64,000 nucleotides of DNA, from contig JBCBUK010000007.1 in NCBI GenBank assembly GCA_039818205.1, positions 64,001-128,000 on the forward strand. The letters are read 5' to 3'. The notes beneath the pieces are model-generated. The model did no database searches. It saw nothing but the letters and a program-made list of their open reading frames with translations, and was not told where the DNA came from. Below are positions 2,449-20,394 of this stretch, piece by piece. Source of the stretch: Verrucomicrobiota bacterium (GTDB lineage: Bacteria > Verrucomicrobiota > Verrucomicrobiia > Opitutales > Cerasicoccaceae). The position numbers were made by a program, and so were the translations under genes. Position 1 is the first letter of the stretch. Every line of letters starts with the position of its first letter.

Positions 2449-3234
2449 CTAAACCTGAGCTTTTGTCACAAAAACAACCGATTCTCCGGCTGTAAGCAGT
2501 TCCCCTTCGACATCAAATACATCGCGAAAGAGATCGTTGTTCAGCGTATCATGGATTGGGCCGGAAGCGAAGGTCTTCCCTTCGCTGAGCACTAAACACT
2601 CATCCGCATAAGCCAGAGCCAAATTAAAATCGTGCAGGATGCAGGCCACACCAACTCCGCGCGATGCCATTCGCTTGGCTTCGCGTAAACAGGCGTGTTG
2701 ATGCGCGACATCGAGGTTGTTAGTGGGTTCGTCCAGGAGCAGGTATCGTTGCTCTAACGAGCCCGCCACTGGCCAGATCTGGGCCAGGCAACGCGCCAGG
2801 TGGACTCGTTGTTGTTCACCACCAGACAATGTCATATAATGCCGATCAGCCAATTCATCAACGTCAGCATCCTTCATCGCTTCGTCCACAATTTCTGATT
2901 GCTCACGCGGCTCATAGGAACCGATGTGCGGCAAGCGCCCCATCTCCACGACTTCGCGCACGGTAAAATTGAAACCCAGGTTCGAGCTCTGCGCGAGCAC
3001 AGCGCGTCGGCTGGCCAAGTTCCGTGCCGAGTACTCAGTTAGCGGTTGCCCATCCAACACCACACTTCCGTGCTGTGGCTCCAATCCTCCACCTAACAGG
3101 CGAAACAAAGTCGTCTTCCCGGCACCATTTGGCCCAAGAATCGCCAGCATACGGCCTGGGGATACACTTACCGAGACATCTTCAAGGATCGACTTCGGGC
3201 CGTAAGCAAAACTCAATTTATTCGCGACAAGCAT
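2449..3234 (-). CDS. hmuV: Haem ABC transporter ATP-binding protein
   Basis: GPNGAGKT, LSGGEQQRVHLARCLAQIW, LLLDEPT; operon context. Confidence 0.9.
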   Translation of the reverse strand: MLVANKLSFAYGPKSILEDVSVSVSPGRMLAILGPNGAGKTTLFRLLGGGLEPQHGSVVLDGQPLTEYSARNLASRRAVLAQSSNLGFNFTVREVVEMGRLPHIGSYEPREQSEIVDEAMKDADVDELADRHYMTLSGGEQQRVHLARCLAQIWPVAGSLEQRYLLLDEPTNNLDVAHQHACLREAKRMASRGVGVACILHDFNLALAYADECLVLSEGKTFASGPIHDTLNNDLFRDVFDVEGELLTAGESVVFVTKAQV

Positions 3235-3238
3235 ATCA

Positions 3239-4297
3239 CTAAACAGTCATTTGACGCCGCCCACCCAACAGCAACAACAAGAAAAACGGACCACCAAGTA
3301 AGGCGGTTAAAATTCCGATCTGCAACTCAGCCGGAGCCGCCACCGTCCGGGCAAAGGTATCAGCAATCAACAGCAGTAATCCCCCGCTGAGCGCACTCAC
3401 TGGCAACAGCAAGCGATGGTCCGGCCCTAAGCTAAGACGAACGATATGCGGAGCCACTAAACCAATGAATCCAATGATGCCTGAGAAGGCAACGGTCACG
3501 CCCACCATCAATGCACTCACGACGATGGCCAATTGTTTCACCCGGTTGACGTTTACCCCCAGGTGGTACGCCTCAAGCTCGCCAAGTAGGAATGCGTTCA
3601 ACGCTTGCCCCAGGCGCAAGGCAACGACCAGGCAGGGAGCCAGGATCACCAGAAGAATGCCGACGCTCGTCCAGGTTGCACCCGCCAAGCTTCCGAGAGT
3701 CCAGAACGTCACCGTCCGCAACTGATCGTCATTGGCCACCAAGGTGACGCATAGCCCAATCAACGCACCGGCGATCGCATTGATCGCAATCCCCGTAAGG
3801 AGCATGGACGCAACGTGAATTCGTCCACCAACTCGTGACAGCTGATATACCAGAAAAGTGACCCCAACGCCGCCGGCCATCGCCATCAAAGGGAGCAGCG
3901 CTAAGTCAAAAAAGTAACTGCTTATGCCGAACGCCGGGAACAACACAATTGCGACAACGGCACCCATGGCCGAGCCACTCGAAACACCGATCAAGCCCGG
4001 GTCTGCCAAGGGATTCCGGAACAAGCCTTGCAAAACTGCGCCTGAAACTGCCAGGCCAGCCCCAATCAAAACCGCCAGAATGATCCGTGGTAAACGGATC
4101 TGCCAAATCACGGAACTGGCCACATTGAGCTCCGGATTCTCGCGACCCAGTAACTTCTCAAACAAGACTGAAAGAACTTCGCCCCAACTGAGCTTCATTG
4201 CCCCGGTGCCCAACGAAATCCCCGCGGCCAGAAAAAGAACCGCGATCAGAATAACGTAAACCCACAGACGGCGAGCACCCTTAATACGCAAAGGCAT
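3239..4297 (-). CDS. hmuU: Haem ABC transporter permease (FecCD family)
   Basis: IRLPRIILA, FRNPLADPGLIGVSSG, GIIGFIGLVAPHIVR. Confidence 0.9.
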   Translation of the reverse strand: MPLRIKGARRLWVYVILIAVLFLAAGISLGTGAMKLSWGEVLSVLFEKLLGRENPELNVASSVIWQIRLPRIILAVLIGAGLAVSGAVLQGLFRNPLADPGLIGVSSGSAMGAVVAIVLFPAFGISSYFFDLALLPLMAMAGGVGVTFLVYQLSRVGGRIHVASMLLTGIAINAIAGALIGLCVTLVANDDQLRTVTFWTLGSLAGATWTSVGILLVILAPCLVVALRLGQALNAFLLGELEAYHLGVNVNRVKQLAIVVSALMVGVTVAFSGIIGFIGLVAPHIVRLSLGPDHRLLLPVSALSGGLLLLIADTFARTVAAPAELQIGILTALLGGPFFLLLLLGGRRQMTV

Positions 4298-4332
4298 CGG
4301 CTAAACAAAGAAGCGTGTTGAGATGAGAACGA

Positions 4333-5208
4333 CTATTGGCTAACCGAAGCAAAGAGCTGGTTCCAACGCGCAATAGACTCGGCCAGCCGCGGGCCGAAAG
4401 CAAGATCATCCATGGGCACGCCATGAACTGCGCCCGCTTGCACTGCTGCAAGCGAGCCCAGCATCGGCATTGAACGGAGAGCGTCAACCGTCGCCTGAGA
4501 TGCTCCGTGTTGATCCGAAATGCCAACCAGAATGATGTCTGGGTTGATCTCAATCAAACTTTCGAGTGAAAGGGTTTTGAATCCGTCAAACCCCGCCGCT
4601 CCATTCTTTCCGCCGGCCAACGAGATCAATGAATCCGAACGCGTTGCTTCGCCACCCGCGGTTCCGGGCGCTCCCAATGAGGGAGGTCGCAGAAAGAAAA
4701 CGACTACCGGCTTGCGGTCCCATGACGAACTCTCCGTACGCGCATCGCCTTCCGCTTCGCGAACCCGTCGGATGATGCCCTCTGCCTGGTCATCTCGATC
4801 CAGCTTCTTCGCAATCGCCTCCACCGATTGTTCCAATGCCTCAATGCTATTGGGCTCCGGACACCAAACCGTGGGAATCGCCAACTGCTTGAGGATCTTT
4901 TTTGCCGCCGGCGGGCCAAGCGATTCGGTTGTCACGACCAAGTCGGGGTCCATCGACAAGATTCCCTCTGGGGAAATATTTCTAATGTATCCAACCTGCG
5001 GCAAATCCTGCGTCGACTCCGGGTAAGTACTGCTAAGATCCACGGCAACCACCTGATCTCCAGCGCCCAACGCGTAGACGATCTCCGTTGCCGCTCCACC
5101 GACCGTCACAATGCGGTCGTAACGAGCACCCGAGGCAAGCTGGGAACACACCAATGGCATAAGAATCGAGACGATCGCGGTGAATTTTACATATTGATAT
5201 TGAGACAT
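4333..5208 (-). CDS. hmuT: Periplasmic haem-binding protein
   Basis: Signal peptide; RIVTVGGAATEIVYALG, VAVDLSSTYP, VGYIRNISPEGILS (haem-ligating Tyr region); start uncertain. Confidence 0.88.
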   Translation of the reverse strand: MSQYQYVKFTAIVSILMPLVCSQLASGARYDRIVTVGGAATEIVYALGAGDQVVAVDLSSTYPESTQDLPQVGYIRNISPEGILSMDPDLVVTTESLGPPAAKKILKQLAIPTVWCPEPNSIEALEQSVEAIAKKLDRDDQAEGIIRRVREAEGDARTESSSWDRKPVVVFFLRPPSLGAPGTAGGEATRSDSLISLAGGKNGAAGFDGFKTLSLESLIEINPDIILVGISDQHGASQATVDALRSMPMLGSLAAVQAGAVHGVPMDDLAFGPRLAESIARWNQLFASVSQ

Positions 5209-5275
5209 AATTTCAAAAAGTTGCAATTTTCAGTTGACCCTCGCAAGCTTTTATTGTTCTTGAGTTCCATTCTCA
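5200..5275. promoter_or_regulatory. Two Fur-box-like 7-1-7 inverted repeats in the hmuT/hmuS divergent promoter
   Basis: TTGAGACATAATTTCAA (5200-5216) and TGAGTTCCATTCTCA (5261-5275) resemble TGAGAAT-N-ATTCTCA. Confidence 0.55.
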
Positions 5276-5297
5276 CTTACAAAACTAGCAAAACAGC

Positions 5298-6341
5298 ATG
5301 TCGAAACTACTTTCCTCTCCAATCAATGAGCGCTACCGCGATTTGATGAATTCCACTAAAGGCCTACGGCAACGCGACGCTGCTGAGCGTCTCAATGCCA
5401 CCGAAGCCGAACTTGTTGCCGCAAACTGCGGATGCGAATCCACCCAGCTCGATGTCAGCGACTGGATCTCATTTATTAAGGAGCTCAAGCTCCTCGGACG
5501 TGTGATGGTGCTAACTCGTAACGATCACTGCGTCCACGAACGAAAGGGTTGCTACGAATCCATTATTGGGCACGGGAAGCGTATTGGCCTCGTTACTGGC
5601 AAAGACATCGACCTGCGCCTCTTTTTTGAGGCATGGCAGTATGCGTTCGCGGTTACAGCGCCGGGTCGCGGTGGCAAAGCCCTGCAGTCCATCCAGTTTT
5701 TCGATCGCTACGGCAACGCCGTTCACAAGGCATACCCGCAGGAGAGCGATCGCCAAGGAGAATACGAAAGCCTCGTCGAGCGCTTCCGCGCAGCGGAGCA
5801 ATCGGATTCGATTCTCATTGATGCCAAGCCAGCGAAAACATCCCACCCGTCCCTTGAGGAGTCACAACAAGCAACATTCCTTGACGAGTGGGAGAAGCTA
5901 CAGGATACGCATGATTTCTTCCCACTTCTTGGCCGTTACGATGTTGGTCGGCTGCAAGCCATGGAGATTGCCGAGGGACGGTTTACCCGTCGCCTCGACA
6001 CTCAGGCGGCCCGGACCGTGCTTGAGCAAGCGCGTGATCAGGAAGTCTCGATCATGGTCTTCGTGGGCAATGATTCCGCAATTCAGATTCATACCGGACC
6101 GGTGCAAAAATTAGCCATCTCCGGAGAATGGTTCAACGTATTAGACCCCGATTTCAATCTACACCTCAACGAAACGGGCATCGCCAGTGCCTGGCACGTC
6201 ACCAAGCCCACCAAGGACGGCGACGTAAACTCACTGGAGCTCTACGACGCCGATGGTGAGATCATCGCGCAGTTCTTTGGAGCACGAAAGCCAGGAATTC
6301 CGGAGCGATCGGATTGGCGGCAAATCTGCGACGGTCTCTAG
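5298..6341 (+). CDS. hmuS: HmuS/HemS/ChuS-family haem-degrading or trafficking protein
   Basis: LTRNDHCVHERKG, IDLRLFF, SIQFFD..G.AVHK, DTHDFF, IMVFVGN..IQIHTG, FGARKPG. Confidence 0.93.
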   Translation: MSKLLSSPINERYRDLMNSTKGLRQRDAAERLNATEAELVAANCGCESTQLDVSDWISFIKELKLLGRVMVLTRNDHCVHERKGCYESIIGHGKRIGLVTGKDIDLRLFFEAWQYAFAVTAPGRGGKALQSIQFFDRYGNAVHKAYPQESDRQGEYESLVERFRAAEQSDSILIDAKPAKTSHPSLEESQQATFLDEWEKLQDTHDFFPLLGRYDVGRLQAMEIAEGRFTRRLDTQAARTVLEQARDQEVSIMVFVGNDSAIQIHTGPVQKLAISGEWFNVLDPDFNLHLNETGIASAWHVTKPTKDGDVNSLELYDADGEIIAQFFGARKPGIPERSDWRQICDGL

Positions 6342-6421
6342 GAGACCAACGCAGGCCCTTCACGGTCATCATGCTCCCAAATCTTTGACTCACACTCATC
6401 ACCACCAATCACTATTGAGAC

Positions 6422-6436
6422 TGAGACACTTTCTCT
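6422..6436. promoter_or_regulatory. Fur-box-like site upstream of the PEP-CTERM gene
   Basis: TGAGACACTTTCTCT, preceded by an extra TTGAGAC; same pattern as the 5200/5261 boxes. Confidence 0.45.
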
Positions 6437-6448
6437 AAAATAGCTTTT

Positions 6449-7153
6449 ATGGAAAACAAAACAACCATATCCCTCTTGGCTTTGCTGTCAGGATCGACTG
6501 CCTTTGCGACGCTTAACATTGGACTGCCCAATGGCTCGACCACTGAATCGTGGTCGGATCTAAACAGCACCAACTACACCGTCGAAGACGGCTACAACAC
6601 AATCGGCAATTTCGATGCCGGTTGGTCAACGGCAATCGCTTCGGACACCGGAACCGCCACGTTTGACAAACTCGCGGGTACCAACGGCTATCCGGCGAGC
6701 AGCTCAATATACAACTTCGAAGACTTTGCCCCACCCTTTTCGGAACCGGGCGTCTACTTCATCACCGAAGCTTCGCCGATCGCCGGATTGGAAACAGTCG
6801 TATTTCAAACCGACACGGTATTCTCGGATCCCTTCCCACAGCTTCCCGTGTTGAGCTATAACGGTGGCAGCCAAGAGTTGTCGGCAGATCTCACTGATAC
6901 AACGGTGGGTGGATTCAACTTTGCCGGTGACCAATCTCAGAATCTCTCTTTTCAGTGGGACCTCAGCAGCGTGGGCGAAAGCATCACCGATTTTGTTATC
7001 CAATGGCAGTCGCCGAACCACACGGCCAACTTTCAGATGCAATTGGATCAAGGCGACACGTTCGTTGGCGTGATTCCAGAACCATCGCACTATGTTCTTT
7101 TGACCAGCCTATGCGCTGGAACGCTATTGATGCTTCGCAGAAAGAGGTGTTAG
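6449..7153 (+). CDS. PEP-CTERM protein, haem-locus associated (candidate haemophore)
   Basis: Signal peptide; VIPEPS + hydrophobic helix + RRKR; core domain paralogous to the N-terminus of 7217..8521. Confidence 0.85.
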   Translation: MENKTTISLLALLSGSTAFATLNIGLPNGSTTESWSDLNSTNYTVEDGYNTIGNFDAGWSTAIASDTGTATFDKLAGTNGYPASSSIYNFEDFAPPFSEPGVYFITEASPIAGLETVVFQTDTVFSDPFPQLPVLSYNGGSQELSADLTDTTVGGFNFAGDQSQNLSFQWDLSSVGESITDFVIQWQSPNHTANFQMQLDQGDTFVGVIPEPSHYVLLTSLCAGTLLMLRRKRC

Positions 7154-7165
7154 TCGAATAATGCG

Positions 7166-7197
7166 CCTGCTGGCGGAAGTCAGCCACCGCCAGCAGG
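7166..7197 (+). other. Intergenic GC-rich stem-loop without a U-tract
   Basis: CCTGCTGGCGG (7166-7176) / CCGCCAGCAGG (7187-7197), perfect 11-bp stem. Confidence 0.7.
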
Positions 7198-7216
7198 TAC
7201 CAATTCCTACCATACC

Positions 7217-8521
7217 ATGAAATCAGAAATCGCGACCTTAATCGCGGGCCTCGTCACTGCCCAATCGCTTTGCGCGCAGTTCATTACCCCGGACTACCGT
7301 GAGGACGACTTCGACGAGAACTTTGCCTACTGGGTTGGGTTTGATGTCGCCTATACGCCCGAGCAACCGCCCTACACTGGACTGGGTTTTGACGATGTGA
7401 ATATTCCGTTTGCCGGCGGCAATCAAAATGCCCGTCTCGCCCAAGACGAAGCCGATGCTGCGATCATTACCTCGACCGGCGGAATCTACAGTTTCCAAGA
7501 GGGCTCGACCAGTTACAAGGTCTACGACAATCCTGACTACAGCCCAGGAAGTATATTGTTCCAGACCGCGACGCTTACAGGTAGCCAATCCCTGCCCGAC
7601 CTTTCAAGCGCGAAGCTATTCTACCGCACATCGAGCAGTGGCCCTTGGGTCGAGGCAGATATTCCGATCGCAGCAGCACTGGAAAGTTCAAATTCTACTG
7701 GTGACCAATTCACCGTTTGGGAATGGGACACGAGCAGCCTGCTGATCGCCGACTACTACATACAATTTTCCTATTCGCTGAACCATTCCAGCTTCATTGA
7801 AGCTCAGCTCGACACCCATGAATCCTATGAGCAACAGCTCGACGGTTTCAGCATCAATGTGGATACAAACATTCCATTTGGCCTCCTCTTTGGGGTCATT
7901 GATCGGAGCCCAGAAAAGCTCATCTATAACGCGGGCGAAAGCGTAACGCTCGAAGTCGTGACGAACAGCAGTTTTCAATTTGTGAAGTGGATCGGAGACT
8001 TTGGCGAATCGACTGATAACCCAATGACGATTACGATCGACGACAACTTGGAACTTCAGGCGATCCTTGCTCCAGTGAACTATCAGGTCTGGCGCCAGAT
8101 TGCCTTTCCTGCTGCGCACGGGTCGGGCGCCGACCTCGGCGAAGACTGGGCATCCGATTTCGACTTTGATTTGGACGGGCGTATCAACCTGATTGAGTAT
8201 GCGTTTGGCGGAACTCCGGTTGCTTCAGATTTGGAGACTAAGCAGATCGAACTCCGCGTCATCGAGCTAGAAGGGAAACGCTACCCTGCAATCGAGTTTG
8301 CACAACAAGTTGCTGCCAATGATTTGACCTACGACGTTGCCAGCTCATCTGATCTTCAAAGCTGGCAAACCAACAATGACCCAGGCGCTCCCTTTGTTTC
8401 CGATCCGGAAATCATCTCGCTGAATAACGATGGAACCAAACAAGTCCTTGTACGTTCATTGACTCCCTTGGATTCAGAGAACCAACGCCCGTTCCTACAA
8501 CTGCTCATCCTGGCTGACTAA
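7217..8521 (+). CDS. Secreted protein: haem-locus domain + InlB B-repeat/Flg_new-like domain + C-terminal putative sorting domain
   Basis: Signal peptide; YNAGESVTL...FVKW.GD...NPMTITID repeat; DFDLDGRINLIEYAFGGTP and SSSDLQSW...FLQL tail. Confidence 0.75.
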   Translation: MKSEIATLIAGLVTAQSLCAQFITPDYREDDFDENFAYWVGFDVAYTPEQPPYTGLGFDDVNIPFAGGNQNARLAQDEADAAIITSTGGIYSFQEGSTSYKVYDNPDYSPGSILFQTATLTGSQSLPDLSSAKLFYRTSSSGPWVEADIPIAAALESSNSTGDQFTVWEWDTSSLLIADYYIQFSYSLNHSSFIEAQLDTHESYEQQLDGFSINVDTNIPFGLLFGVIDRSPEKLIYNAGESVTLEVVTNSSFQFVKWIGDFGESTDNPMTITIDDNLELQAILAPVNYQVWRQIAFPAAHGSGADLGEDWASDFDFDLDGRINLIEYAFGGTPVASDLETKQIELRVIELEGKRYPAIEFAQQVAANDLTYDVASSSDLQSWQTNNDPGAPFVSDPEIISLNNDGTKQVLVRSLTPLDSENQRPFLQLLILAD

Positions 8522-8556: not shown

Positions 8557-9387
8557 CTAGCTCGGGATGGGCTTGCGCTTTGTAAAGAGCAGGCCGATCA
8601 CCAGCGCAAATAAGGCAATGGGAGCCAGGCTCAACCAACTGAAAGTATTGATCCCCTCCAAGCGGATATCTTCGATACTGCGGCTGATCGCGCCACCGCG
8701 CCCAAACACGCAGAGGCGATAAGGACGAGAAAGGTTTAAGGTCGGGCCATCACCAAAAGCAACCAATTGATCATCAAGCCAATACTCCCACTGGTCGGGC
8801 TTGACTATAACCCGGATACGATGAGTCCCTTCGGTAGGCCCTCCCCGGTAGAGCCGCAATTGCTCCTCTCCGTTCCGTACCAACAATCCCGCATCCATGC
8901 GATTCTGCACGATTCGGAAAACTAAGCAGTCGGGAGTTGGCTCGTTGGCGAATTCAACCTGATTCGTAAATCTCAACGACAATCCATTTTTGAGGTCTCT
9001 CGGACTAACTTGATCAGCTGCAAGCAATCCGATCTCGAACTGATTTGCGTTAAAGTCGTCAACCCGATCCGTAGAAACCGATGCCTCAAGAAGAAACCCA
9101 TCCTCACTAACAAAGGCACTATTGGTGAACCAGTATGCGCGCGGCCCCGGAAGTTGGCTTTCTTGAAAGTATTCAAGTTTTCCATCCAGTTCGCGCCAGG
9201 AGCCCTTCTGGTTGGACCACTGATGAGCGCGAATCTCGTGCACCAGACCAAAGCCCATTTCGCTATTATCCTCCAAGTTCGATTCGCCAATGAAATCGTT
9301 CTCGTACAGCACTCGTCCCATCAACATCTGGGGAGAGGTCGCAAGAAGAGTCAAAAAAAACGCGCAAATGAACTTCAGGTTCATCAT
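8557..9387 (-). CDS. Exported, C-terminally membrane-anchored hypothetical protein (possible ConA/LamG-like sandwich)
   Basis: Signal peptide, beta-rich body, C-terminal TM + KRK; its ATG overlaps the kinase stop (ATGA). Confidence 0.7.
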   Translation of the reverse strand: MMNLKFICAFFLTLLATSPQMLMGRVLYENDFIGESNLEDNSEMGFGLVHEIRAHQWSNQKGSWRELDGKLEYFQESQLPGPRAYWFTNSAFVSEDGFLLEASVSTDRVDDFNANQFEIGLLAADQVSPRDLKNGLSLRFTNQVEFANEPTPDCLVFRIVQNRMDAGLLVRNGEEQLRLYRGGPTEGTHRIRVIVKPDQWEYWLDDQLVAFGDGPTLNLSRPYRLCVFGRGGAISRSIEDIRLEGINTFSWLSLAPIALFALVIGLLFTKRKPIPS

Positions 9388-11405
9388 TGATATTTGACCT
9401 CTACCCAATTTGGGATTTTCTGCCAATCCTCAGCTGACAATTGGCCATCTCGAACAATCAAGGTCTCGAGATGGTGCATGGATTCGATTCCGCTAAGGTT
9501 GCACTTCGGTGTCTCTGAAATATCGAGAACCGAAAAATCAAGATTGGCCAGTTTCTTCAGAGAGAACCAAGAATCGGGAACAATTACCTTCACCGAACGT
9601 AGCGGCAATAAACTGAGAAATGGTGACTCCTTGCCTCCGGGAGCGCGGGCGTGCATCACGCTCAATCCCGTTCCGCCGATCACTAGATGTTGGCTGACGG
9701 GATCGTAATTGAAGATACCAGATAACCATTCCTGATTATAGTGTTCAAGCAGTGCCTGAACAACTGGCCCATAGCCTGATTTGTCCTCGCGATGGGCCGC
9801 GTCGAAATAGACCATTTTGGAGAACAAGCCCAGGAAGTTGCTATCCATCAATTTGGCATGTTGAGCACAGGCGATTACTTCATCCAGGCTCGGGCGTACA
9901 GTCTGATTAAATCGGTAATCTTTAAAGCGACTGGCAAGTTCAATAAACTGCGGGTTTACCTCCAAGCCCTGTTGCAGCGCAGTTTCATTGGCGATCTTAA
10001 AGTTCATGCGAATCATTTCGAAATAGAATCGCTGCCGCCAGTACTCCTCCGCATCTGGAAATAGTGTGACATGCTGATCATAGGCTTCCAACAGCGTTCC
10101 CATGACCCAACCGGGGTCGGTGTAAAACATACGATCTCGCACCCTCGCGTAAGTTGCCAAGGTGCCATCAGATAGCTGAGTCAGTGAATCAATCTCGTCC
10201 TGCGCCGTTTCCTTGTAGGTGTCCAGTAGCTGATACTGCGTCTCCGCGCGGCGCTTCTGCTCTTCGACTGCACGAGATAAGGTGTGGCTCGTGAAGGCGA
10301 CAATGGTCGCTGCCATAAACAAGACGCAACACAGCAGTACGTTGCGCTGGACCAAGAGAACCAATCGCTCCCAGAGAAACGGGCTGTCCGCATAGGTTGG
10401 AATGTGGCCCTTGTATCGTTGGATATCCTCCTGCAGACTCTTTACTGATGAATAGCGCTTCTCGGGGTCCGGTGACATTGCTCGCTTGACGATGGCCTTC
10501 AAACCTTTGGTCAAACCAGAGTCTGAATGTTTGATCCGACCGACCTCGATCACCACTCCCTTACGGGTTTTCTCAATCATTTTCTCGATGGACAATCCCT
10601 CCATCGGTGCCGATCGCGTCAAGATACTATAGAGGATGGCTCCAAGGGCGTAGACATCGGTTCGGGCGTCCTTCTCCCCACCTGAGACCACTTGTTCTGG
10701 GGCCATATAGCCTGGTGTTCCTTTAATCTCCCCCAGCAGCGACTTACCGGTGTATCCTTCGAGGTCAATCTCGACTTCGTCAGCCAACTCATGAAAGAGC
10801 TTCGACTCATTCACAACTTTCGCCAAACCCCAATCGCAAACGATCACCTCACCGAAATCATTTACATAGATATTGGCGGGTTTGAGATCGAGGTGAATGA
10901 CGCCTTCACCATGGGCATACGCCACCGCATCACAGATCTTCAGAAAGATATCAAGGTAGTCATTTAACTTAAGTTCATCTCCCTTTGGATTCTCTTTAAA
11001 TACGCGGTCCTCGACCAATTCCTCTAGCGTCGAGCCTCGCATGAGGTCCATGGAAAAAAATGGCCGTCCACCTGGTTCCACGCCAATGTCGTGGATATTA
11101 ATAATATTGGGGTGACTCAATGAAGCGGTCAGCTGCGCCTCCAACAGAAACGGCTCATAGAACACTTTATCCAATCGCTCGTGCAGCCGCCCGATTGCAA
11201 CCTGGCGTTTGGTCTTCGTATCAAAGGCGCGGAAAATCTGTTTCGACCCACCCTCAGCAATAAAAGCCGGGTCTAGATACCGGTCACCCTCGTTAAGCAA
11301 ATCGGCATACGCCGGCGAGAGGTCTTCGGCATTCGGGTCTCCATCGGATGCCAAATCATAGAGAAAACCGAGATCTCGATCCAGGTTATACTCATCCTCA
11401 GTCAT
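9384..11405 (-). CDS. Membrane Ser/Thr protein kinase with WNK-like lysine placement
   Basis: HLDLKPAN, DWGLAK, GTPGYMAPEQ, DVYALG; one TM then a C-terminal domain; beta3 reads VAIG, with Lys in GGSK. Confidence 0.92.
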   Translation of the reverse strand: MTEDEYNLDRDLGFLYDLASDGDPNAEDLSPAYADLLNEGDRYLDPAFIAEGGSKQIFRAFDTKTKRQVAIGRLHERLDKVFYEPFLLEAQLTASLSHPNIINIHDIGVEPGGRPFFSMDLMRGSTLEELVEDRVFKENPKGDELKLNDYLDIFLKICDAVAYAHGEGVIHLDLKPANIYVNDFGEVIVCDWGLAKVVNESKLFHELADEVEIDLEGYTGKSLLGEIKGTPGYMAPEQVVSGGEKDARTDVYALGAILYSILTRSAPMEGLSIEKMIEKTRKGVVIEVGRIKHSDSGLTKGLKAIVKRAMSPDPEKRYSSVKSLQEDIQRYKGHIPTYADSPFLWERLVLLVQRNVLLCCVLFMAATIVAFTSHTLSRAVEEQKRRAETQYQLLDTYKETAQDEIDSLTQLSDGTLATYARVRDRMFYTDPGWVMGTLLEAYDQHVTLFPDAEEYWRQRFYFEMIRMNFKIANETALQQGLEVNPQFIELASRFKDYRFNQTVRPSLDEVIACAQHAKLMDSNFLGLFSKMVYFDAAHREDKSGYGPVVQALLEHYNQEWLSGIFNYDPVSQHLVIGGTGLSVMHARAPGGKESPFLSLLPLRSVKVIVPDSWFSLKKLANLDFSVLDISETPKCNLSGIESMHHLETLIVRDGQLSAEDWQKIPNWVEVKYQ

Positions 11406-11986
11406 TCCAAATTTGTTTTCAGATTCTGAACCTCCTTCAACAAGCGGCTCTTCACACGACGCTTCAACGTATAGACAGTATTGACCGTAACTCCAAGCTC
11501 TTCAGCAATGGCCTCAACCTTCATCCCCTTAATGCTCATTTTGAATACTTGAATCGCATTGCCGCGATAAACCTTCTCGACGTTCGTCATCGCAAGGTTC
11601 GAAAGGTAAATCCCCCACTCCTTATTGACCATTTCTTCAAACTCATCGGTCGCCAAATCGGCTGCCGTTGCTTCAAGGTGATCTTTCTCCGTAGTTGTGA
11701 CTAGTTTATCTCGGCGAATTCGCTTTGCCAGATAGCGACCAGCCTGGTGCCGCACAATCGCACTCAACCAGGTTCGAAACTTCGCCTTCTCTTTTTTATA
11801 GGTCGGCAGGCTTTTCCAAAGCTCGATCAGAATATCCTGTGATAAGTCATCGATATCATCGGGGCGCACGCCAATGCGGTTTAGCAGGTAAAAAATAAAC
11901 CGCCGGTAGTAAAACACGAACTCATCCCAGGCTTCATTGTTTCCGGGCTGGCATGCGCGTTCCAAGAGTGTGTGCCTGGTTTCCAT
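11402..11986 (-). CDS. ECF RNA polymerase sigma-70 factor (PVC, kinase-associated type)
   Basis: TRHTLLERA, AWDEF...Y, KFRTWL, IAEELGVTVNTVY; ATGA overlap with the kinase. Confidence 0.92.
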   Translation of the reverse strand: METRHTLLERACQPGNNEAWDEFVFYYRRFIFYLLNRIGVRPDDIDDLSQDILIELWKSLPTYKKEKAKFRTWLSAIVRHQAGRYLAKRIRRDKLVTTTEKDHLEATAADLATDEFEEMVNKEWGIYLSNLAMTNVEKVYRGNAIQVFKMSIKGMKVEAIAEELGVTVNTVYTLKRRVKSRLLKEVQNLKTNLE

Positions 11987-12368
11987 CTAAGGTCTTGAGT
12001 GGATGCGTTCACGTTCCAGTTCCGAAACACGGTCTGCAACGGTTAGAAATCTAAGGTTAGGAACGTTTTTGACGATCGGATTGTCACTGTAAATATCGGA
12101 ATAGAAGAGCCCATCGTTAAGAATTCTTACTGAGCAACGTATCAATTGTCGAGTCGGTTTGAGGGAACAACCGAGCCCAGAATTGCAGGAAACACTTCAA
12201 TATTCGATAAAGTATCTGATCGAGTGTACAAAACGTCAACAGGTCAAACAATGTATTGATAGCCATGTTTCGCTTAGCGCGGTAACGCAAGGCTAACCGT
12301 TTCATTTCAATACACTTCCGGCGACCAAAATTTCGCTGTAACAAACCTCAATATACATTCAATCACCC

Positions 12369-13013
12369 ATGACAGAATATCTTCGAAAAGCCAAGCCGGC
12401 AAGCGCCCTCTTAGCCGGGATGCTGCTCTGCCCGCTGGCAAATGCTGAACTAATCACCTTTGACTGGGCCGCTGGCTTCCAGAGCAACGTACCGACCACA
12501 ACGTTCTTTGATGTGGATGGTTCTGGCATTGACGTTGAGGTGTCCTTTTCAACGTTCACCCAGGGCAATGGAGCTAACAACCCAGCCAGCAACGGTGGCG
12601 TCGATGGAACCGCTGGCGGATTCCTGGATACCACCGCCGCCACCGGAAGCATCAATTTCGACTCTGATGTTCTGATCTCCCAGTTCTACTGGCGCCCAGC
12701 AAGTGCAGCTGATGCCGCGCCAGTAACCCTTGTTGGTTCGCTCTTGGGAATCGAGCAATGGAGCATCAGCACCATTGTCCCTATTACCGGCGATGCCGAA
12801 CTGATCAATTCAGATCTCCAACTCACAACCGGAAGCTTCGCGAGCGCAATTGACTCAATCAGCTTCAGTCAATCGGTTCTGACGAATTCCAACCGTTTGG
12901 ATGATATCACTTTCACCGTCGCAACGATACCGGAACCAAGCACGTTTGCTCTGATCGGAAGCCTGCTTGCCTTCGGTGCGGTCGTTGTCCGTCGAAGAAA
13001 GAACAATAGCTAA
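12369..13013 (+). CDS. PEP-CTERM protein
   Basis: Signal peptide; TIPEPSTFALIG...VRRRK. Confidence 0.9.
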   Translation: MTEYLRKAKPASALLAGMLLCPLANAELITFDWAAGFQSNVPTTTFFDVDGSGIDVEVSFSTFTQGNGANNPASNGGVDGTAGGFLDTTAATGSINFDSDVLISQFYWRPASAADAAPVTLVGSLLGIEQWSISTIVPITGDAELINSDLQLTTGSFASAIDSISFSQSVLTNSNRLDDITFTVATIPEPSTFALIGSLLAFGAVVVRRRKNNS

Positions 13014-18294: not shown

Positions 18295-20394
18295 TCAAAC
18301 GCCTCGAAGATAAACCACGCGGGAGTTGTGGACACCAAGCTCAACGGGAATATCCTGCGTCCATACCTTGTTCCCAATCGAGAATACCAGGGTGACGCTT
18401 TCAAGAGACTCCAGCAAGGCCTGATACTCTGACTCACTAAGATCCGTGCGCTCCTCTGAGATCAAGTTGAAGCGATCGATCATGAGTCGAAATGAAACCC
18501 GATCATTACGGAACTTTCGAAACACGAGCCGCCGGATGCCGGATTCTCGGCTGAAGTAATTATACAACCAGGAACTCGTTCGAGCCAAACCTGCCGATAT
18601 TTCCTGTGTCCAGATCGTATACTGCTTGAGCGAGTCATCTTCATTTGGATTGTTTGCCATCAGGTTGACGGTCACCTCCTCATCGGCGGGAATTTCAAAA
18701 TCGACTCCCTCATCGAGCTCTCCGGAGATGGCGACGCGATCGCGGTCTTGAATGCGGCTATTCACATACCCAGTCAAACGGCATAGGCGCACATTCATCC
18801 CGTTGATTACCTCAGCAACCTGAACGATCTGCATCATGCCAAGCTCTTCATGATCGAGCAGGTGGCAATGCGCCACAAACTTGCCTACGAAGTCTTCAAA
18901 GCGGGTTCGGAACTTGATACTTCCACCACCAGTCACCGTAAAGGTATCATACCAAACGGGAGTATCTAAAGTCTCTCCATTGACCTCAATCAGCATGTAG
19001 GGGTTCTGGTGAATATGAAAATTGTGATCTTCGTCTGCGCTATTTGTAATCGTCCATTCTTCAACGGCACCCAACTGAATAATATGATCGATACGGCTTG
19101 GGTCCAACAGGCGACCATCCATCTGAAACTCGAGCCCGTTGATTTCGTCATCGACCGTGTTTAGATCAACCGTCCGGGTATTCTCGACCTCACTCGCATC
19201 AATATTGGTTACCTGGACCGGCAGAGTCTCGGGAAGAGGCATGTCGACCGGATCACCCTCGACAATGACTTTCACAAGATTGAGTGCATCCCAAGTCGGT
19301 TCATCATCCGTTGTTGAACGAGGTGCATACGCACCTTTTTGCAAGTAATAGGTTCCCGGTGTATCTGACTTCCAGAGAATCTCGATTCTCTGGCCTGGAG
19401 AAAGCAGGTAATCAGTTTCTTCACGCGGCTCCGCAAACGTGATATTGTCAGTCGCAATCGCGTAGTAGGTTAGATTCTCCGAGCCATCTTCGTTGGTCAT
19501 GTTGATCGGAACAAAGAGCGTTCCCGCCGCATTCGCAATTCGCCAACGAACTAACTCACCGGGTTGCACCGTAATCTCTTGGACACTATCCTCGTCATAC
19601 CCCTGAGTGCAATCCGTCGTTCCAGTCATCGCGGTTTGCCCGTTCACCAAGAGCGCATTGACGCAGGTCGGGAAGGCAGCTTCCGGATCATCGGTGTCGG
19701 TAACCGGTTCCTCAACTTCCCAACGTGCGTTGTCATCGTCGTAGGTCAACTCGAGCACCTGCAAGATCAAAGGGATCTCCCGAGCCGCGGCAACCTCCGG
19801 CACATCGTCGAGCGGCCCGGTGATGATGATCGCGCTAGCCATGCCGCTTCTGACCTGCTGGAAAACGCCCCCATGTTTGTGGGGGTGATACCACGCGATG
19901 CCGCCAGGATGATCCTCGGGAATATGAATATTATATTGGAAAGTAGACCCTGGGTTTATCCGGGTAAATACGTTGTCGCCATTACCCAGCGGCGAGACAT
20001 GCATGCCGTGGGTATGAACATTCGTCGTGTTCCATTGGTGTGGTCGATTCGGATTGGTAACCGTTTCACCATCAGTGTTCGGCGGAAGTTGGTTGCGCAA
20101 CAGAAACTCGATCGTATCGCCGGGGTTCACCTTCCATATCGGCCCAGGAATCATCCCCTCAAACGTGCGCGTATAGATCGTGCCTAAGTTCGCTAAAGTA
20201 TTTTCGGCAAACACCACGTTCAAGTCGCCGCCCAGAACGCCATCAACACTTTCCCAAGTCTGCGGGATAATCAGTGGAGGATTGGTAGAAACTACAGCTT
20301 GTCCCAAAAGACGAGTCGGCATATTCAAGCCAACGTATCCAACGCCAACGGCTTTGATAAATGATCGCCGCGAAACACTAGAATTAATATCCAT
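18295..20394 (-). CDS. Tat-exported multicopper oxidase with C-terminal extension
   Basis: SRRSFIK Tat motif; HTHG, WYHPH, HNFHIH, HCHLLDHEELGMM copper ligands. Confidence 0.92.
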   Translation of the reverse strand: MDINSSVSRRSFIKAVGVGYVGLNMPTRLLGQAVVSTNPPLIIPQTWESVDGVLGGDLNVVFAENTLANLGTIYTRTFEGMIPGPIWKVNPGDTIEFLLRNQLPPNTDGETVTNPNRPHQWNTTNVHTHGMHVSPLGNGDNVFTRINPGSTFQYNIHIPEDHPGGIAWYHPHKHGGVFQQVRSGMASAIIITGPLDDVPEVAAAREIPLILQVLELTYDDDNARWEVEEPVTDTDDPEAAFPTCVNALLVNGQTAMTGTTDCTQGYDEDSVQEITVQPGELVRWRIANAAGTLFVPINMTNEDGSENLTYYAIATDNITFAEPREETDYLLSPGQRIEILWKSDTPGTYYLQKGAYAPRSTTDDEPTWDALNLVKVIVEGDPVDMPLPETLPVQVTNIDASEVENTRTVDLNTVDDEINGLEFQMDGRLLDPSRIDHIIQLGAVEEWTITNSADEDHNFHIHQNPYMLIEVNGETLDTPVWYDTFTVTGGGSIKFRTRFEDFVGKFVAHCHLLDHEELGMMQIVQVAEVINGMNVRLCRLTGYVNSRIQDRDRVAISGELDEGVDFEIPADEEVTVNLMANNPNEDDSLKQYTIWTQEISAGLARTSSWLYNYFSRESGIRRLVFRKFRNDRVSFRLMIDRFNLISEERTDLSESEYQALLESLESVTLVFSIGNKVWTQDIPVELGVHNSRVVYLRGV

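Follow-up and report, generated by a model that had tools for sequence, protein, structure and literature searches.

HasA of Serratia and Pseudomonas, the partner of the receptor HasR, ligates haem through a Tyr and a His, adopts an alpha+beta fold and is covered by a Pfam model. The NEAT (Isd) and HtaA/ChtA conserved-region domains are Tyr-based haem modules that occur in tandem on several anchors and relay haem to an ATP-binding cassette (ABC) transporter, YxxxY being the NEAT haem motif. Published reports describe HasA as an exported protein of about 19 kDa that hands haem to an outer-membrane receptor (PMC6449446), HmuY of Bacteroidota, which works with HmuR, as an all-beta, haemophore-like surface protein beside a TonB receptor (PMC8911585, PMC6200708), and the gingipain HA2 jelly-roll module as binding haemoglobin and haem (PMC12094164). 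It is also reported that haem entered a Neisseria PilQ mutant through the secretin in a PilT-dependent manner (PMC6449446), and that the pilin-like MUL2 locus of Akkermansia is tied to substrate attachment or uptake in Akkermansiaceae (PMC13174399). Here, a 64,000-nucleotide stretch of a Verrucomicrobiota genome (contig JBCBUK010000007.1, positions 64,001 to 128,000; hereafter the window) was analyzed, in which two adjacent genes, A and B, follow the haem gene hemS/hmuS and encode predicted exported proteins that share a domain of about 190 amino acids (aa).

With a probability of about 65%, we consider the two proteins members of an iron-repressed, exported haem-capture family feeding HmuTUV and HemS. 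This reading is based on the haem neighbours of the domain, the sequence of the boxes before its genes, the conservation of a Tyr, and a third copy lying in a block of Fe3+ ABC transporter, HemS-like and Fur genes.

The shared domain and its two carriers

Both open reading frames (ORFs) lie where a preliminary description of this DNA had placed them, and every sequence block that it quoted was found in the translations. Their parts are as follows, in window coordinates.

6449..7153, plus strand: gene A (P0001), 234 aa, with predicted signal peptide, shared domain and PEP-CTERM signal (ORF translation, TIGR02595, model)
6509..7072, plus strand: copy A of the shared jelly-roll domain, aa 21-208 (AlphaFold2 model)
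6710-6712, plus strand: Tyr88 of copy A (family alignment)
7019-7021, plus strand: His191 of copy A (family alignment)
7073..7147, plus strand: PEP-CTERM sorting signal of gene A (TIGR02595, 19.9 against a cut-off of 16 bits)
7165..7198, plus strand: 12-bp perfect hairpin between genes A and B, without U-tail (-25.7 kcal/mol, z -5.1, 0/200 shuffles)
7217..8521, plus strand: gene B (P0002), 434 aa, with predicted signal peptide, shared domain, InlB B-repeat and verrucomicrobial C-terminal domain
7277..7837, plus strand: copy B of the shared domain, about aa 21-207 (hhalign 97.7%; fold matches in common with copy A)
7487-7489, plus strand: Tyr91 of copy B (profile alignment)
7784-7786, plus strand: His190 of copy B (profile alignment)
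7925..8062, plus strand: divergent InlB B-repeat of gene B (PF18998, E 1.6e-4, 22 against a cut-off of 23.6, just below)
8075..8518, plus strand: C-terminal domain of gene B with a D-x-D-x-D-G-like motif, common in exported proteins of this genome

Pairwise comparison of proteins A and B gave only weak similarity (BLASTP, 36% over 39 aa, E 0.002; phmmer of the pair against the ORFs of this genome, E 0.64-0.73) and was rejected as proof of a shared domain, for which profiles were required. Family A was collected as 13 and then 109 proteins, and 15 of 18 matches of the B-domain search were kept, the phmmer matches P0024, P0029 and P0032 being discarded as repeat or unrelated matches. Profile-profile comparison of the two families by hhalign gave 97.7% and E 2e-12 over 192 columns, with the IY and H positions in register. 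The domain, proposed earlier from a block alignment that is by itself no proof of homology, is therefore real as judged by the profiles. An iterated profile, which superseded a merged profile that had missed several divergent copies, finds exactly three copies in this genome.

The domain has no match in Pfam, NCBIfam or the PDB sequences, and the ESM Atlas gave no named family, with a feature score of 0.76 that is of lead level only. At E<=0.1, Pfam yielded only fn3 for copy A (E 0.011, below cut-off) and the B-repeat for copy B. AlphaFold2, run on 108 sequences, predicted copy A as an all-beta domain of about 185 aa without any helix of at least 4 residues, at a predicted local distance difference test (pLDDT) score of 94.8. 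The full-length model of gene B reached a pLDDT of 70.5, and several of its fold matches over residues 32-206 are common with those of copy A. The best fold match, 8x8h_A (Z 9.2, root-mean-square deviation 2.9, 118 residues aligned), has a middling Z and was obtained with a predicted model; most top matches are jelly-rolls of carbohydrate-binding modules (CBMs) or Eph ligand-binding domains (Z 8-9). The fold had been called unrecognised, which was not upheld, as the model shows a beta-jelly-roll of the galactose-binding-like, CBM/Eph type. Foldseek returned no match at E<=0.001, and among the 50 matches listed per fold search no known haemophore appeared, apart from weak Foldseek matches to gingipain K1/K2 adhesin domains (E 0.011-0.015), of which the K2 cleaved adhesin domain is presumably HA2.

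Other proteins carry the domain two or three times in tandem and place it before long stalks of passenger-associated repeats, so it is a mobile module. None of the domain fusions scanned contains a carbohydrate-active enzyme (CAZyme) domain, and no CAZyme neighbour recurs at the loci. P0027, P0031 and P0133 each contain a fusion of the domain with a 'WxYPF' module.

Gene A combines a TIGR02595 score above cut-off with exosortase homologues encoded in the genome (E 3e-20 to 1e-6), as expected of a PEP-CTERM/exosortase substrate, whose hallmarks are a PEP motif, a membrane helix and a basic tail, and the PEP-CTERM ending reported for it was borne out. For gene B, a B-repeat and a different C-terminal domain had been reported. 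Both were recovered, the repeat below the Pfam cut-off here and above it in 7 of 11 relatives, and it is likely a stalk. The C-terminal domain has 11 other ORFs of the genome as matches (phmmer, E<0.01) and Ig-like structural matches (Z <=7.6), and is a putative anchor or sorting domain. The signal peptides were read by eye, and surface display is presumed on account of the tails, although PEP-CTERM proteins might remain in the periplasm. The hairpin between the genes is possibly a stabiliser of the mRNA and could set unequal mRNA levels of genes A and B; sigma-70 promoter and terminator scans stayed at chance level, and no RNA holder is listed.

Haem neighbours, iron-type boxes and the conserved tyrosine

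The genes preceding the pair form a haem-uptake locus, in which hmuV, hmuU and hmuT (2449-5226, minus strand) are divergent from hemS, gene A and gene B on the plus strand.

2449..3234, minus strand: hmuV, haem ABC transporter ATPase (NF010068, 295 bits against a cut-off of 261)
3239..4297, minus strand: hmuU, FecCD-family permease (PF01032, E 2e-91)
4333..5226, minus strand: hmuT-like periplasmic binding protein (PF01497 match)
5200..5216, no strand: Fur-like palindrome with 1 mismatch in the divergent hmuT/hmuS region
5260..5276, no strand: second box with 2 mismatches, upstream of hmuS
5298..6341, plus strand: hemS/hmuS with two HemS domains (PF05171, E 1.6e-77)
6421..6437, no strand: Fur-like box with 2 mismatches, 11 bp before gene A

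The GYxR motif of HmuT, whose Tyr we take to be the haem ligand of this protein, occurs in 9 of the 11 orthologues at these loci. On the contig carrying the window no TonB-dependent receptor was found, consistent with the earlier statement that a TonB-dependent haem receptor is absent from the window.

The genomic distribution of the domain was then assayed. In a class sample of 301 genomes, profile A1 matched 25, including this genome and one false, tail-only match, whose locus (L057 in G112) was discarded. HemS was encoded in 12 of the 23 other real carriers vs. 8 of the 277 remaining genomes; six more carriers, found later via a prepilin, had no HemS, which brings the figure to 12 of 29 domain genomes. 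Within the stretches fetched, 17 of 25 real class-sample loci contained a haem gene. A GTDB species scan added 34 loci from Verrucomicrobiota, Planctomycetota, Armatimonadetes and Betaproteobacteria, 29 of them after removal of five that repeat earlier loci (L088, L090, L105, L109, L113); haem genes were found at 10 of the 29, and for the unannotated ones 100 of 124 selected neighbours were scanned, with further ones later. Named carriers of the domain include Cerasicoccus, Rubellicoccus, Blastopirellula marina, Singulisphaera and Pelomonas. Overall, haem genes lie beside the domain in 27 of 54 loci of other genomes, across Verrucomicrobiota and Betaproteobacteria, so the co-location with haem genes passed the comparative check in two phyla; related genomes are not independent and P values overstate.

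The haem partners interchange among hemS, hugZ, haem oxygenase, a HutW-like radical SAM gene, chaN, hmuTU(V) and a haem-type TonB receptor. In the betaproteobacterial Pelomonas and Roseateles loci (L101, L104, L107), two or three copies of the domain flank a receptor whose best family is TIGR01785, at 245-277 bits and under the cut-off of 317. At none of the Planctomycetota and Armatimonadetes loci was a haem gene found nearby; at one of them, L102, an Fe3+ ABC transporter and an imelysin gene stand beside the domain. Of the 65 PEP-CTERM-like genes of this genome, just two have a haem gene within 5 kb, and both belong to the domain family. The third copy (C7:223426-224100) sits between an Fe3+ ABC transporter and flavodoxin, HemS-like and Fur genes. 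In its surrounding block (L001:774-20000, or G000:C7:214000-233999), inspection by eye also points to ORFs resembling integrase and replication genes, and there is a pilin cluster that includes a PilT-family ATPase.

The boxes were scored against the pattern TTGAGA-N5-TCTCAA, the TGA-N9-TCA core of which, we assume, fits both Fur and RirA-type boxes. The genome (4.85 Mb) has 11 sites with at most 1 mismatch, two of which are that of the hmuT/hmuS region and one before the third copy. A Fur-like box had been placed before the pair; the site at 6421-6437 matches the pattern with 2 mismatches, a class with 168 sites genome-wide and so weak alone, and better sites lie at 5200 (1 mismatch) and 5260 (2). 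In 26 loci of other genomes, 32 box sites were found vs. 12.9 expected, and in 7 of the 26 a box lies within about 60 bp of the boundary of a domain ORF. Fur-family genes adjoin two iron loci in this genome. The haem locus is probably under iron repression, as far as the box sequence can tell, and domain genes stand with haem-uptake genes at both loci of this genome and at 27 of 54 elsewhere. A divergently transcribed AraC regulator, orthologous between loci, often accompanies the prepilin/domain operon (L034, L035, L038, L048, L049, L051, L055, L084, L087 and others); no clear orthologue of it was found in this genome.

A Tyr and a His had been described as conserved in the pair. The Tyr proved near-invariant, being present as Tyr88 in 107 of 108 sequences of family 1 (copy A) and in 89 of 89 copies across 63 loci. 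The His is common, not invariant (His191 in 87/108 sequences of family 1, 5/12 in family 2, that of copy B); strict conservation was rejected, with 66 of 89 locus copies having it, a count that lacked two long His-bearing copies found separately. In about a quarter of the copies Ser, Thr or Phe replaces it, and a fixed, HasA-like His/Tyr two-ligand site is therefore unlikely to be general. A His copy is present at 28 of 30 loci with haem genes and at 24 of 33 others, the two added copies included, and three of six copies from prepilin-selected carriers lack the His; a His-less subfamily may bind iron in another form. The other invariant residues, W35, F119, Q120, L135, W170 and D171, look structural. 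Shallow covariation (Neff 130) of the pairs S86-F195 and E91-N190 hints that the Tyr and His strands would lie antiparallel and side by side, their two side chains pointing to the same face, an arrangement that might favour ligation by the Tyr with a hydrogen-bonded His over two axial ligands facing each other. The domain likely binds haem through the near-invariant Tyr.

Further families recur at these loci. DUF6607 stands beside the domain in L054, L085, L086, L097 and L099 (PF20311 matches in four of them; L099 is assigned from its position and likeness alone), adjoins a haem-type receptor in L054, L097 and L099, and is a candidate for a further haem-uptake protein; no paper found in a full-text literature search, with most subscription journals outside its reach, names it. 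Other exported families (DNRLRE-like, 'WxYPF' type, several with PEP-CTERM) replace or accompany the domain in haem loci, as at L065:9056-9832, L067:7307-8356, L046:8657-9463 and L099:10995-11837. A second recurrent cassette (L063, L066, L073-L076) consists of the prepilin, the domain, AraC, a Kelch propeller, DUF4198 and a pyrroloquinoline quinone (PQQ)-type propeller, and in L074 includes bacterioferritin and Bfd.

Elsewhere in the window, the minus-strand genes at 8557-13013, an extracytoplasmic function (ECF) sigma factor (11402-11986), a Ser/Thr kinase (9384-11405) and an unannotated exported protein, are divergent from another PEP-CTERM gene and apparently unrelated to the haem locus. 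The ORF at 18295-20394 resembles, by eye, a Tat-type multicopper oxidase extended by an additional C-terminal region.

The prepilin partner and the receptor question

The commonest neighbour of the domain is one orthologous prepilin family of about 275 aa, which occurs in 33 of the 301 class genomes, single-copy in nearly all, and in 19 of the 23 other domain carriers, from which came the 17 loci that built its profile. Its members carry an N-terminal methylation motif (PF07963 and TIGR02532 above cut-off) and, in 18 of 18 alignment rows, a C-terminal H/Y/F-x9-DG motif; TIGR04294 had no match at E<=1e-5 in the two members scanned. Among 54 loci, 31 contain the prepilin, 9 a haem-type receptor and none both, where about 5 would be expected (P 1.5e-4; 5e-4 with Planctomycetes-Verrucomicrobia-Chlamydiae (PVC) loci only), the P values being inflated by kinship and some contigs ending close by. 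The four real carriers without the prepilin (G061, G188, G208, G245) all have a receptor scoring 280 bits or more on TIGR01785, and the prepilin occurs in every one of the 15 carriers without a TIGR01785 match at E<=1e-30, this genome included. The exclusion is not strict at genome level, as G142, G143 and G275 have both.

Out of sample, 13 prepilin genomes without an A1 match had the domain nearby in 6 cases, haem genes in 5 and neither in 2, so the prepilin tracks haem use as well as the domain; the 5 with haem genes have another or no visible PEP-CTERM partner. Since the prepilin appears dispensable where a receptor exists, we infer that it fits haem import better than export of the domain.

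In this genome the prepilin is encoded at C3:12912-13832 beside Fur, ChaN and a FecA-like receptor, and PilB, PilT and secretin homologues are present. No clear haem receptor was found among its three TonB receptors. One divergent candidate, C3:254622-257405, has a FRAP motif and scores 107-109 bits on haem-receptor models vs. cut-offs of 317-324, so the claim that the genome has no haem receptor was rejected as not proven. In this genome a short hugZ/hutZ-like gene is also divergent from, and nearly abuts, a PilB/GspE-like ATPase gene at L061:7352-10448 (G000:C3:217351-220447), and in L083 PilB and PilT directly follow the domain genes; either arrangement may be chance. The same full-text search, with its limited journal coverage, found no description of the domain or of the prepilin in haem loci.

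A tentative model would be that PVC bacteria import haem without a TonB receptor, the jelly-roll haemophore capturing haem at the surface and a haem-dedicated prepilin in a retractile type IV/type II filament carrying it through the secretin to HmuTUV. This swap of a prepilin for a receptor is the most surprising part of the analysis and, doubtful as it is, could reveal a pilus-linked import route. If true, it would give the large PVC family of H-X9-DG-type prepilins its first assigned cargo and provide a model for substrate uptake in PVC bacteria without SusCD-like receptors. The locus-level exclusion of prepilin and receptor makes the role of PVC prepilin-like proteins testable with a small coloured substrate, and bears on how cells with few receptors move cargo across the outer membrane.

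Proposed haem capture, its alternatives and known systems

Several observations weigh against haem capture. No haem gene was found within the 7-18 kb fetched at 27 of the 54 loci; the six carriers found via the prepilin pair the domain with Kelch, DUF4198, PQQ-propeller and AraC genes and show no haem gene in the vicinity; 23 of 89 copies lack the His; the box pattern was picked after the sites of the window had been seen; and the nearest folds of the predicted model bind sugars or proteins. One alternative is an iron-regulated adhesin or lectin, which would keep haem-rich particles or haemoproteins attached to the cell while not itself ligating haem. The CBM and Eph matches at Z 8-9, the tandem copies on long passenger-repeat stalks, as in binding modules, and the weak gingipain K1/K2 matches, given the reported haemoglobin binding of HA2 (PMC12094164), would agree with such a function. 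We nevertheless consider it unlikely, because a single near-invariant Tyr with a nearby His is conserved rather than a run of exposed aromatics, and the neighbours are haem genes and not glycoside hydrolases.

Alternatively, the domain might bind iron or an iron chelate (siderophore, organic iron) in general, with haem loci as one iron-starvation context of several. The third paralogue by an Fe3+ ABC transporter, the Fe3+ transporter and imelysin of L102, the bacterioferritin and Bfd of L074, and the half of the loci without haem genes point this way. However, receptors next to the domain are of the haem type in 9 loci and siderophore-like in 1 (L076), and the His copy is more frequent at haem-gene loci than at others, which makes a general iron binder improbable; the His-less subfamily may bind something else. 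Still less probable is a haem-binding store or detoxifier at the surface or in the periplasm that does not donate to the importer. Akkermansia PEP-CTERM proteins were reportedly found more in intracellular than in outer-membrane fractions (PMC4960237), but the iron-repression-type box and the operon positions next to a receptor or hmuT fit scavenging under scarcity better.

Haem capture remains our preferred reading. Of the haem link proposed in the preliminary description, the co-location, the near-invariant Tyr, the iron-type box and the lack of a known family have stood; a fixed HasA-like two-ligand site is unlikely to be general, and the fold is recognisable as a predicted jelly-roll. In the proposed mechanism, iron shortage would free the boxes at 5200, 5260 and 6421 of a Fur-family repressor, and both proteins would be exported by Sec, copy A being handled by the exosortase and copy B held by its C-terminal domain on the B-repeat stalk. 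The Tyr would ligate ferric haem; the neighbouring His (or Ser) would either form a hydrogen bond or act as a second ligand, and the two differently tethered copies could act as a haem relay. Crossing of the outer membrane may use a haem-type TonB receptor in some lineages and, where it is absent, as here, would likely take a route involving the conserved prepilin; HmuT, HmuUV and HemS would then finish uptake and iron release.

The domain is, in our estimate, probably a new family of exported haem-capture modules. If so, the few haemophore families would gain a further haem-binding fold, and a PEP-CTERM protein family, most of which are without known function, would gain a ligand. Haemophore-type scavenging would also reach free-living bacteria of marine, freshwater and soil habitats, as well as two uncultured Akkermansia bins (L084, L091).

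Compared with HasA, the proteins are likewise small and exported, and at 9 of 54 other loci a domain gene adjoins a haem-type receptor. In contrast, the domain has no profile match in Pfam or the PDB sequences, its model is all-beta, with no helix of 4 residues or more, instead of alpha+beta, and HasA is not among the listed fold matches, though it could lie outside those listings. Moreover, a Sec signal and a C-terminal tether take the place of type I secretion, and no receptor lies on this contig or at most domain loci. The NEAT and HtaA modules of the Gram-positive side resemble the domain in the Tyr-bearing module, the tandem copies and the several anchors. However, the domain reads Y-N-F-E-D or Y-S-F-Q-E without a conserved Tyr at +4, has no Pfam match, and occurs in diderm hosts with an exosortase signal in place of a sortase signal.

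The HtaA conserved-region and HmuY profiles had no Pfam/NCBIfam match in the domain proteins, and copy A further differs from HmuY in its predicted fold and in having no Cys in the signal region, hence no lipoprotein Cys. With gingipain HA2/K2 the domain shares the jelly-roll and weak Foldseek matches, but at 12-13% identity, a template modelling (TM) score of about 0.31 and a place outside the top 50 by Z, which gives no evidence of common ancestry. The Neisseria PilQ case concerns a point mutant, and that of MUL2 glycans and a different pilin; neither describes a dedicated prepilin in native haem loci. The domain pair would thus act in the manner of a haemophore relay, yet by sequence it does not qualify as HasA, NEAT, HtaA or HmuY.

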